Positions 4,075 to 40,113 of a stretch of 64,000 bases of DNA are shown here, piece after piece. The stretch is from contig NC_043018.1 in assembly GCF_006345805.1 (NCBI RefSeq), forward strand, positions 20,460,001 through 20,524,000, written 5' to 3'. Every line of letters starts with the position of its first letter. Position 1 is the stretch's first letter. Made by a program: the position numbers and the translations under genes. The notes beneath the pieces were generated by a model. That model did no database searches. It was not told the origin of the DNA and saw only the letters and a program-made list of their open reading frames with translations. This DNA comes from Octopus sinensis (lineage: Eukaryota).

Positions 4075-5185
4075 GGCACAAGGCCAGCAATTTGGAGAGG
4101 AGTGGGGTGAGGTGGGGAACCAGTTTCAGAATGTAAAGACAGAACAAATGCCACCAAGAATTCTGTCTGACATGCTAACAAATTTGCTACTTCACTGCCT
4201 TGAATATTGGTTTCAAATTTTGGCACAAGGCCAGCACTTTCATGGAGGAGTGGGAAGTCGATTACATGGACGTCCCCCTCCCCCATTGTTCAACAGGAAC
4301 TTATTTTATCAACCTCAAAAAGATGAAAGACAAAACAGATCTAGGTGGAATTTGAACTCAGAACATATAGACAGACGAAATGTCGCTAAGCATTTTGCCC
4401 AGAATGCTAACGACTCTGCCAGCTTGCTGCCTTCGCTGCCTTGAATATTAATAATTGTTTCTAATTTTAGCACAAGGCCACCAATTCTGAGGGAAGGCAT
4501 AAGTCAAGTAGGTCAACACTTGTGCTCAACAGGTACTTATTTTATTGGCTCCAGAAAGATGACTGGGAAATCTGACCTTGGTGGCATTTCAATTCAGAAT
4601 GCAAAGAGTCTGAGAAAATGCTGCTAAGCATTTTGTTTGGTATGGTAACAATTCTGCCAACTCACCGAAAGGAAGAAAGACAAAGTCAACCAACCTCAGC
4701 AGAATTTGAACCCAGAACATAAGGACAAGCGAAATACCCAGTGAGCTAATTCTACCAACTCACTTAAATAATATCGGTTTCAAATTTTGGCACGAGGCCA
4801 GCAATTTCAGAAGAGGGGACAAGTCAATTACATCGAACCCCAGTGTTCAACTGGTACTTACTTCTAATCGACCGTGAAAAGAGAAAAGGCAAAGTCGACT
4901 CTGGCAGCATTTGAACTCAGAACATAAAGTCCGATGAAATGCCGCTAAGCACTTTTCCTGGAGTGGTAAACGATTCGGCCAGCTCGTCACCTTGACACCT
5001 AAAATAATAATAATAATCCTTTCTACTATAGGCACAAGGCCTGAAACTTGATTGGGGGAAGGGGACAGCCGATTACATCAACCCCAGTGTTTCACTAGTC
5101 CTTATTTTATCAACCCCAAAAGGATGAAAGACAAAGTCAACCTCAAAAGAATTTGAGCCCAGAACATAAAAACAAGAGAAATACT
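4075..5185 (-). mobile_element. Head-to-tail cluster of about 5-6 decayed SINE family B copies
   Basis: Repeated GGCACAAGGCC..CCCCAGT..AACTGGTACTTA..GATGAAAG.CAAAGTC.ACC..GAATTTGAACTCAGAAC motifs. Confidence 0.85.
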
Positions 5186-11692: not shown

Positions 11693-11994
11693 GTGATGAA
11701 TAGTACATTACTCTGCCTTAGGTATTTGAGTACCATTTTTTCCCATCTTGTTTTGCATTTATGTGCTTATTTGTGTGTGTGCGTGTGTGTACATACATAT
11801 ATATATATATATATATATGAAAAAACAAGTCATCATCATCATCGTCATAATCATCACCACCACCACCATCATCGTCATCTTCTCCTTCTCCTTCTTCTTC
11901 TTCTTCTTCTTCTACTTCTCCACCCCCTACCCCTTAACTTTGTCACTAATGTTTTTTAGTATAACACCTACGCTAATTCTATAAACAAGCCTGT

Positions 11995-12399
11995 CAATAT
12001 AAATATTCCCCTGAATTGAACTGAGACTGCCAGCCGCCACTGACCATTCAAAATACGACCATCAGGGCACTCCCAGATTCTCCCACCCCCCTTTCCTCAC
12101 CAGCCTTCTTCCTCTACTACCCTTCCAAGAACTCACAACTACCTCGAACACACAAGTGCAAACAAGGGAGTCAGAGAAAGGCAGAATGCCACTTAAATCT
12201 GAACACTACTATAGAAATATTCTTTTAAAAAAACTTTTCTTCTAATTTTTCTAAATTTAATTATTTAATCGTTACAGTTGAAAAGGTCTCAAAATGACCG
12301 AAACCGGTACTGAAATGTTCACTATAAAATTATTTTAGCATTTTCTATTTTTGACTTGTTTTTTCATATATATCAACTCATGTGTTCCTTTTCACCCTT

Positions 12400-12400
<1 letters not shown>
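11995..12400 (+). mobile_element. Penelope-like element 3' end / pLTR fragment
   Basis: AAATATTCCCCTGAATTGAACTGA = KYSPELN*, like the PxLN end of PLE GIY-YIG ORFs; followed by a hammerhead motif and ending in (TA)n. Confidence 0.6.
12273..12315 (+). ncRNA. Minimal type-I hammerhead ribozyme, U3-A8 core variant
   Basis: CAG TTGAAAA GGTC TCAAAAT GACC GAAA CCGG TA CTG: stem I CAG/CTG, stem II GGTC/GACC, palindromic stem III ACCGGT, GUA cleavage triplet. Confidence 0.7.
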
Positions 12401-12446
<46 letters not shown>

Positions 12447-36788: not shown

Positions 36789-39234
36789 CAGCATGGAAGA
36801 CAGATGTATGATGATGATGATGTATTTCCTGAGTAATGATTAGAAAAAAAATTTATTATTTTTTTTTTTTTAAATAGATAGTTTTACTGCAACCATAAAG
36901 AACAGGAAGAAAAGAAAAAAGAAACATGTAACGTTATATAGCAATTCAAACCTTGCAACTGGCGCCAACAGTCCTGAAATACTTCTGTCACCTGGCACTA
37001 CAGTCTAATTAATGGGGATATATTATTAATGAAATAAAGTAACAAACAAAATAAACGTAACAACAACTGTCCCAGAATTGATTCCGTGTCAGGAGTAGTT
37101 TTGAGATTTACTGCTGTAACGCTGGAGATTGATACTTTGTTTGAATCATCAGTCGTGTTTAAACAAGAATTTGGATTCTCAATTGTACTTTTGGAAACCA
37201 GTTACCCTCTCGTGGCTATATTCCTATGCCTGCGTGGAGTCAAGAGATGGGAACTTCTCAGCTGGAGAGACATGTACCCAAGGGAATGAATGAATGAACA
37301 CAAGCACCATAATAATAAGGCTTTCAAACTATGGCACAGGGCCAACAGTTTTTGAGGGGAGGGGGAAGTCCATTACATCAACCCCCAGTACTAGACTGGT
37401 ATTTGTTTTATCAATTCCAAAAGGATGAAAGGCAGAGTCAACCTTGACGGAGTTTCGGATGCTTTACATCCAATCATTATTCTTCATTTAGGGATAGCAG
37501 TAAACGCAATAGCACAGGGCTTAGTAAATTGTTGTGGCATCTTAAAGACAAGAATAAGGATTTTAAGTTAGATTGGTTCATCCTGTCCATCTCTTTCCCT
37601 TATGACAAGGGCAAAGGATTCTGTAACATTTGCAACTCTGAACTCTTCCATATTCTCTTCTCTAAGAATCACCTTGTTAACACACTTATTGAGTGATCTT
37701 ACAAATGGAAAACTGGCAGAAACATACCTTTAGCTCATATAAGTGATTTATACCAGTCTGTATAGTTTGAACATTTAGTTCACCTTGCACTTTACTTCAA
37801 TAGAGAAATCTACTTCCAAGCCTTTGAACATTTTTTCAGCCAACATATCCCTCTATATTTCTCCATTTCTCCTTATTATTTCTTTACCCCTTCTCTTTCT
37901 ATGATCTACTGTTGACGTCAGATCTACTAATGGTTATTTTTTTAAATACTTAATAGCGTTCTGTTTATCATCTATGCAGTAATCAAAATTGTTATAATGT
38001 CTTGTTGTTGAGATGAGTTCCCTTTCTTTCCTGATGAGAAGATTACATTATTTTACATTGTTTATTCTTTTGGAATAAAACCAATGTTGTCTTCAAAACA
38101 TATGTCGAAAGTAAAAGAATTTGAATAACATCTGCGTTCAACTCCATTTATTTACTTATATATAATATATATATATTTTTTCTCAACATATGGCCCTTAA
38201 ACACCCTTCCAGCAGCCCCTGACAGTCTTCCCTCTATATATAATATAATAATTTTTTCCTTGATTAACAGGAGTCTTACTTTTTTGGTGCAGCCCCATAA
38301 AAAAATTCAGGTTCCGAATCAACCCCGAATATTAAAAACTGAGAATCATTGGAATGGACTTTTCTAAAGGCACCACTGACACCAAAATATTGGTTTCTAA
38401 AATAGGCAACAGGCCAGGAATTTGACAGGCAAAAGAAAGTCGATTATGTGACAGTCCAGTACTTGACTGGTACTTTATTTTATCGATCATAAAAGGACGA
38501 AGGGGCAAAGTTCACCTTGGCAAGATTTGAAATCTGAATGTTAAAATGTCAGGCTGAATACCAAGAGGCACATTATCCAACATTCTTAACTTATAAGCAA
38601 TGAAATATCTATTTATTTGGTACAAGACCAAAACTATGGGGGTCAAGAGGACAGGTGACAGATTAGTTGATCATAACCCAAGTACGTAACTGGTACTTAT
38701 TTAATCCCAATAAAAAATTACCATCACAACAAAAATATTCTCATGTCAGAAGTCATCATTATAATTTGTTCTTAACAACAAAAACAAAATCTGACTGGCT
38801 TCACTATCATCTCAATAACTATTAATATCATTATTATTATTAGTATTATCATCATCACTGACAACAGACACCAACTGTTTACTATCATCATTTATTATCA
38901 TTTCAGTCAGTACTCTATATCATACATTGTAATCATCTCTGACACTTCGCAATAAGCTTTATCTCCTTCATCATCATTATCATCACAATTATAGCCATGA
39001 CTACCATCATCATCATCATCATCATTTATCATCATGACTAGAATTCTCATTACTATCATCGCTGTCATCATCACCACGATAATTGTCATCATTGACCACA
39101 AACCAATGTGTTTAGTGCATTGAAGCAGCCAGATACGACAAGGATACAAGAGTATTTTATGGGGATGGCACAGGATGGCTACAGCAAGGAAGAGGGGAGA
39201 GCGTCAGAATGGCAATGGGAAGAGCGACAATAAA

Positions 39235-39592
39235 TTAATGGGGACAGCAAGTGAAAGTTAATGGGGACAGCAAGTGAAAGTTAATGGGGACAGCTACTGA
39301 AAGTTAATGGGGACAGCAAGTGAAAGTTAATGGGGACAGCTACTGAAAGTTAATGGGGACAGCAAGTGAAAGTTAATGGGGACAGCAAGTGAAAGTTAAT
39401 GGGGACAGCAAGTGAAAGTTAATGGGGACAGCCACTGAAAGTTAATGGGAACAGCCACTGAAAGTTAATGGGAACAACCACTGAAAGTTAATGGGGACAG
39501 CCACTGAAAGTTAATGGGGACAGCAACTGAAAGTTAATGAGGACAGCCACTGAAAGTTAATGGGGACAGCCACTGAAAGTTAATGGGGACAG
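39235..39592. repeat. 23-bp minisatellite TTAATGGGGACAGC(A/C/T)A(G/C)TGAAAG, about 15 copies
   Basis: Direct reading; two degenerate units resume at about 39739-39786 after a family B fragment. Confidence 0.95.
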
Positions 39593-40113
39593 TAAAAGAA
39601 TGTTCTGAGTTCACATTCTAGTGAGGTCAACTTTGTCTTTCATCCTTTTGGGGTTGATAAAATAAGTACCAGTTGAGTATTGGTGTCAATGTAATCGACG
39701 AGTTCCCTCCCCCAAAATTCCAGGCCTTGCGCTTATAATTAATGGGGACAGCAACTGTAAGTCAATGAGGATAGCAACTGAAAGTTATATCATCATCATC
39801 GTTTAACGTCCGTTTTCCATGCTAGCATGGGTTGGACAGTTCAACCGGGGTCTGGGAAGTCAGGAGGCTGCACCAGGATCCAGTCTCCAGTCTGATCTGG
39901 TGGTGTTTCTACAGATGGATGCCCTTCCTAATGCCAAACACTCTGTGAGTGTATTGGGTGATTTTTACATGCCAACTGGCACAGGGGCCAGAGGAGGCTG
40001 GCAATGGCCATGATCAGTTGGTGCTTTTTATGTGCCACCAGCACGGACGCCAGTCAAGACAGTCCTGGCATTAGCTACATTCAGATGGTGATTTTTACAT
40101 GCCACTGGCATGG

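Follow-up and report, generated by a model that had tools for sequence, protein, structure and literature searches.

A minimal hammerhead motif with U3 and A8 at the two core positions that canonically hold C3 and G8 is fixed in the pseudo-LTR (pLTR) of a young, abundant Penelope-type retrotransposon of Octopus sinensis. We put the probability at roughly two in three that this motif is a slow, conditional self-cleaving ribozyme, predicted to act only as a dimer. The window analysed (64,000 nucleotides of contig NC_043018.1, positions 20,460,001 to 20,524,000, forward strand) holds one truncated copy of the element, with the following features in window coordinates:

11812-11832, minus strand: tiny inverted arm of 21 nt, corresponding to the short (tail-less) 3' end of the element and preceded by (TA)n
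11830-12405, plus strand: 3'-terminal part (3' UTR/pLTR) of a 5'-truncated, Neptune-like Penelope element, sharing 97% identity with the terminus of near-complete copy L032
12001-12024, plus strand: codons KYSPELN*, which close a stop-to-stop segment of 15 codons within the 3' UTR
12270-12317, plus strand: minimal hammerhead of type I carrying the U3-A8 core; cleavage is predicted between A17 (12309) and C1.1 (12310)
12270-12277 with 12310-12317: stem I, 3 bp, an A·A mismatch and 4 bp (CAG/CUG, CGUU/AAUG)
12278-12284, plus strand: core U3 U4 G5 A6 A7 A8 A9 (UUGAAAA), fixed in the family
12285-12299: stem II, GGUC/GACC, 4 bp
12300-12302: GAA
12303-12308, plus strand: stem III, the palindrome ACCGGU, for which pairing is predicted only across two copies
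12374-12405, plus strand: optional PLE 'tail' of ~32 nt, then (TA)n

The UUGAAAA core and the ACCGGU palindrome reported by the sequence-only reading are both present, with U3 at 12278, A8 at 12283 and A17 at 12309. Positions 4-6, 9 and 12-14, the A15.1-U16.1 pair and H17 are those of a type I hammerhead; canonical C3 + G8 are replaced by U3 and A8, which keeps the 3-8 pair Watson-Crick. No Rfam hammerhead family reached its gathering score, and the sub-threshold match was to HH9 (19.7 vs 52 bits, E 0.42). Folding predictions support the dimer-type fold that had been proposed, as the double hammerhead is placed at -27.1 kcal/mol vs 2 x -9.8 for the monomers, and the probability of the A15.1-U16.1 pair is 1e-5 in the monomer and 0.92 in the dimer. 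The stem III palindrome is thereby predicted to form in the dimer alone. U3 is also predicted to pair with A17 (P 0.71 in the monomer, 0.84 in the dimer). This putative trap may slow cleavage and would be the analogue of the inhibitory C3-G17 trap described in the hammerhead (PMC3884650).

The PLE context that had been suggested for the motif is borne out by an element with RT, GIY-YIG and pLTRs. A first look found 1,616 repeat candidates genome-wide, and the 30 best copies have a mean identity of 99.3% (as top hits, they are biased to likeness). The near-complete copies L032 and L039 are ordered pLTR, ORF1, ORF2, pLTR, with an ORF1 of 411 aa counted from the first ATG and an ORF2 of 784 codons containing RT and GIY-YIG. 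In L032, ORF2 matches RVT_1 above the cut-off (E 3.5e-8) and GIY-YIG slightly below it (21.1 bits, cut-off 22.6), with the motif LIYSLTC..YIGQT present. ORF2 also carries DKG, YLDD and a CX4CX2C linker (CGRPNCGIC at residue 650). An RT with a C-terminal GIY-YIG, pLTRs in partial tandem, an optional tail and an inverted 5' arm are the anatomy of EN+ Penelope-like elements, while the CX2-5CxxC linker and microsatellite targets ((TA)n flanks) are those of the Neptune clade, the linker being shared with Nematis. Non-LTR retrozymes are non-coding tandem units of 170-400 nt, and this family encodes ORF1 and ORF2. The KYSPELN* codons had been taken for the end of a PLE ORF: they do lie before the hammerhead, 254 nt upstream of U3, but close only the short 3' UTR segment. 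The true RT-EN ORF ends in KYKPLLNGSTTNN*, 685 nt before U3 in L032, and the window copy lacks this ORF.

Two 3' ends are found in the family. (TA)n is reached at the short end in 18/30 best copies and after the tail in 12/30, and in the inverted pairs seen the tail is on one arm only, which fits two RT start sites as described for the Poseidon element PAc (PMC11167929). In the window copy, the inverted and forward arms meet at a TCA microhomology. A hand count over the first 100 of 1,841 motifs gave ~21 inverted pairs and 3-5 same-strand pairs within 6 kb; most copies, including that of the window, are therefore without a partner in cis.

ORF1 and ORF2 overlap at T TTT TTA (L032:4979-4985), with ORF2 in the -1 frame. 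Families B, C and F have this heptamer in the same frame (L133, L134, L139, L140, L142, L175), and it is thus conserved in four PLE families counting that of the window element. In HIV-1 gag-pol, for example, U UUU UUA serves as a -1 slippery site. In the family of the window element, no stable hairpin follows (-0.9 kcal/mol over 75 nt), and the heptamer is a candidate programmed -1 frameshift site without strong downstream structure. One contig in each of four sequencing runs, whose RNA status is guessed, spans the overlap, where no indel is listed; one low-depth contig of run X10 skips 4919-5060, without splice-type ends. A weak search found no fused ORF1-ORF2 protein, and the best 120 homologues are 612-803 aa long. 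Several PLE RT-EN homologues are named as proteins of bacterial gill symbionts (P0029, P0073, P0075, P0078, P0079, P0093) and are probably host DNA in metagenome assemblies.

The exact motif occurs 1,841 times genome-wide vs 0 in the reversed control, and is therefore not a chance match. The family-consensus check suggested by the sequence-only reading came out in favour of fixation: U3 and A8 are found in 30/30 best copies, and across 3,096 family scaffolds C3-G8 occurs in 2 and G8 in 34. A narrower scaffold search gave 12 matches with C3; its sole C3-G8-looking match (L077) was judged by eye to be an old, mutated copy read in a shifted register rather than an ancestor with the canonical core. 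Private decay of a canonical hammerhead in the window copy is virtually out of the question given the number of exact copies and the near-absence of C3-G8. Of the earlier proposal of a selected variant rather than decay, this settles the second part; selection we only infer.

An older subfamily, ~80% identical, has U3 in 26/33 and A8 in 33/33 aligned segments. Since U3-A8 is common to both, the change is old and inherited. The stem II of the older subfamily closes mostly with A-U, not G-C (U11.1 in 22/33, opposite mostly A10.1). The U3 majority also led to the rejection of C3·A8 as the state of this subfamily, at which copy L033 had hinted; 5/6 C3 rows of the subfamily are this query copy and its near-duplicates.

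Four core variants (U3-A8, C3-G8, C3·A8 and U3·G8) were counted across the genome with one pattern (core, 8-34 nt, GAAACCGGTH) and reversed-sequence controls, so that the counts cover ACCGGU-type stems alone. U3-A8 gave 7,425 matches (52 in the control) plus 3,099 (108), one family being in both sets. The other cores were C3-G8 (486 matches, 111 in the control), C3·A8 (346, 104) and U3·G8 (390, 101). U3-A8 thus exceeds C3-G8 by ~20:1 among ACCGGU-type motifs, a copy-number ratio that reflects the amplification of a few families. The expectation that such motifs escape canonical searches proved right, as a CUGANGA pattern misses most ACCGGU-type hammerheads of this genome. U3-A8 is also found in sister PLE families whose ORF2 proteins share 45-58% identity. 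Stem I covaries and keeps its pairing, as 11 representatives have 45/55 Watson-Crick pairs vs 24.4 ± 3.9 in 20,000 shuffles, a test that overstates independence because the representatives are related. Stem II covaries between subfamilies (G-C vs A-U), and decay may contribute to this change, which lies at a CpG site.

These relatives bear on the most serious rival, namely that the hammerhead is a near-dead fold that persists as a signal, structural or protein-binding, close to the RT starts, its core shaped by AT-biased drift. C3U and G8A are both GC-to-AT transitions, the predicted U3-A17 pair would trap the core, lineages with U3·G8 and C3·A8 have amplified, and stem II of sister families has 1-2 bp or is closed by U·U. 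Furthermore, hammerhead mutants are described as without effect on PAc insertion in vitro (PMC11167929), and Naiad PLEs thrive without canonical hammerheads (PMC8557442). Against this, paired cores (10,524 + 486) far exceed unpaired ones (346 + 390), and UGA-A and GAAA are kept across families. We regard a near-dead fold as unlikely, also in view of the junctions described below.

The U3·G8 subfamily is 92-94% identical to U3-A8 relatives, accounts for 38 of the first 100 of the 390 U3·G8 matches and includes near-complete and inverted copies. Its spread speaks against strict selection for the 3-8 pair. Members L139-L142 have a 2-bp stem II and lack a nucleotide near N17 or stem I, yet have amplified. 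C3·A8 copies are found in tandem or inverted pairs (L145, L183). A retrozyme-like 360-bp tandem repeat (L143, L144, L145) has copies with U3-A8, C3-G8 or C3·A8 at ~90% identity. Four canonical hammerhead cores lie in tandem at 58-59 bp spacing at G000:C3:35767344-35767562, and ORF2 pieces were obtained from 2/20 canonical-core loci. Natural U3-A8, U3·G8, C3·A8 and C3-G8 relatives in one genome make up a ready test set.

Genomic 5' junctions offer indirect evidence of slow cleavage. In a search of a 17-base window around the cut site, 14 true junction loci remained once the flanks had been checked, among 1,068 anchored copies; this covers 100 of 106 rows, first sorted by eye from 35-base matches. 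Six of the 14 loci begin at +1, that is at C1.1 (P 8e-5 under a uniform model); the other eight lie at -1, -2, +2 and -11 (single loci) and at +4 and -10 (pairs of loci). A seventh +1 locus came from a search for copies with a non-A base before C1.1 (n=9), in which 8 matches (6 loci) begin exactly at C1.1 and 1 is an insertion. A control window ~120 nt upstream had 1 clear junction among 62 rows. From -3 to -21, ~10 junctions were counted by eye in 100 of 123 rows, at -10 to -19 and none at -3 to -9; as ~7 of the 123 matches are expected by chance, nine '-2' rows were left uncounted. All substitution and indel rows, chance anchor matches (L225, L268) and small internal deletions or indels (L205, L219, L226, L229, L231) were dropped before counting. 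L229 and L231 are small internal hammerhead deletions that end at +2, adjoining the cut site.

The enrichment recurred in another U3-A8 family, whose stem I sequence differs (383 anchored copies, all 51 rows) and where 3/8 junction loci lie at +1 (P 0.009), or 4/8 if a fold-back centred on the cut site is included. An inverted pair (L192/L193, G000:C15:10706270-10706395) has both arms starting at C1.1, with the same 7 bases before each C1.1 and ~65 nt of foreign filler between them.

Overall, ~1% of copies begin at the cut site and ~99% read through it. The +1 junctions suggest cDNAs run off cleaved RNA and slow cleavage in vivo. RT stalling at structure is also a possible source, as hinted by the ~10 junctions at -10 to -19, and the counts are small; under the near-dead fold the +1 junctions would be stalls at the three-way junction. 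However, the peak is at the last base of stem I and not at the 3' edge of the fold, and it is seen in two families with different stem I. The read-through bears on the opposite view, that of an efficient ribozyme processing most transcripts, with the template restored by religation or circles. The genome does contain the retrozyme-like 360-bp repeats with the same core (L143), and retrozyme RNAs of other animals are published to circularise, but ~99% read-through and the low published rates of PLE minimal hammerheads make efficient processing very unlikely.

The reading we prefer, a slow and conditional ribozyme, would work as follows. Two copies would pair through ACCGGU and exchange the arms of stem I, with cleavage 3' of A17. 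These partners could sit on separate transcripts or on one full partial-tandem transcript, whose two pLTRs are 4.4 kb apart. RT would start ~60 or ~95 nt downstream of the cut site (short end and tail end, respectively). With RT starting downstream and ~99% of copies reading through, the usual template was probably uncut or religated; the ~1% of copies beginning at C1.1 would be cDNAs from cleaved template. The window copy is a truncated remnant that stands alone and lacks a partner in cis. For PLE minimal hammerheads, published cleavage is weak and confined to dimers or trimers. In PAc, the hammerhead is described as requiring the element's protein and the uncut RNA as the RT template (PMC11167929), with which an uncut usual template here would agree.

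Published work on the activity of a U3-A8 core points both ways. The covariation is natural, with in vitro activity cited from another paper (PMC3088659), whereas in a type III hammerhead screened pairwise only a G-C swap is described as rescuing the 3-8 pair (PMC9901934). The idea that U3-A8 restores the 3-8 pair thus finds partial support, with the natural covariation for it and the screen against it. Taken together, the predicted U3-A17 trap, the spread of the U3·G8 subfamily and the G-C-only rescue argue against strong activity. A more far-reaching version would combine clade-wide replacement by U3-A8 as the dominant type of the genome, a ribozyme that is active in vivo but held back by the trap, leaving most templates uncut for RT, cut-site fossils and a -1 frameshifted RT-endonuclease without a strong stimulator. 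As a whole, it is conceivable but doubtful.

The U3-A8 variant itself is already known; the family is new. U3-A8 in PLE minimal hammerheads was published for Schistosoma mansoni, with ~1,300 hits (PMC4209133), and that set resembles the octopus family in core covariation, pLTR and mostly single dispersed motifs. As described there, the S. mansoni set is heterogeneous, smaller than the ~2,000 canonical minimal hammerheads and has a helix II of 7-8 bp. In contrast, the octopus family is homogeneous (99.3%, 30 best copies), its helix II has 4 bp and its helix III is a palindrome, and most ACCGGU motifs have the U3-A8 core. The same natural change from C3-G8 to U3-A8 is reported by Perreault et al. 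2011 (PMC3088659), in a few examples and not as a PLE clade.

Neptune and Nematis EN+ PLEs (Craig et al. 2021, PMC8557442) share the RT, CX2-5CxxC linker, C-terminal GIY-YIG and DKG with the octopus element, as well as pLTRs, an optional tail, an inverted 5' arm and (TA)n targets. Two overlapping ORFs with the U UUU UUA heptamer set the octopus element apart from those described there; for some PLE types, a frameshifted ORF1 and a pseudoknot are noted in the legend to Fig. 1 of the same paper. Poseidon PAc of Anolis (Frangieh et al. 2024, PMC11167929) shares two tail-separated 3' ends, AT-rich targets and a hammerhead upstream of the RT start sites. Unlike the octopus core, that of PAc is canonical C3-G8, and RNA-seq ends were looked for and not found at its cut site, whereas octopus genomic junctions are enriched there.

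In vivo evidence for PLE hammerhead cleavage is absent according to PMC4209133. Insertions that start at the cut site, seen here in two families, offer an indirect but countable readout of cutting in cells. Among titles and abstracts, with most subscription literature outside this scope, we found no octopus hammerhead and no PLE cut-site junction enrichment. The rates of U3-A8, the present clade or its frameshift may already be described in Lünse 2017, Arkhipova 2017 or Przybilski and Hammann 2007, or in supplements and figures of PMC4209133 and PMC8557442.

Elsewhere, the window contains a 23-bp tandem minisatellite (39104-39655) and several dispersed SINE-like repeat families of 200-340 bp.
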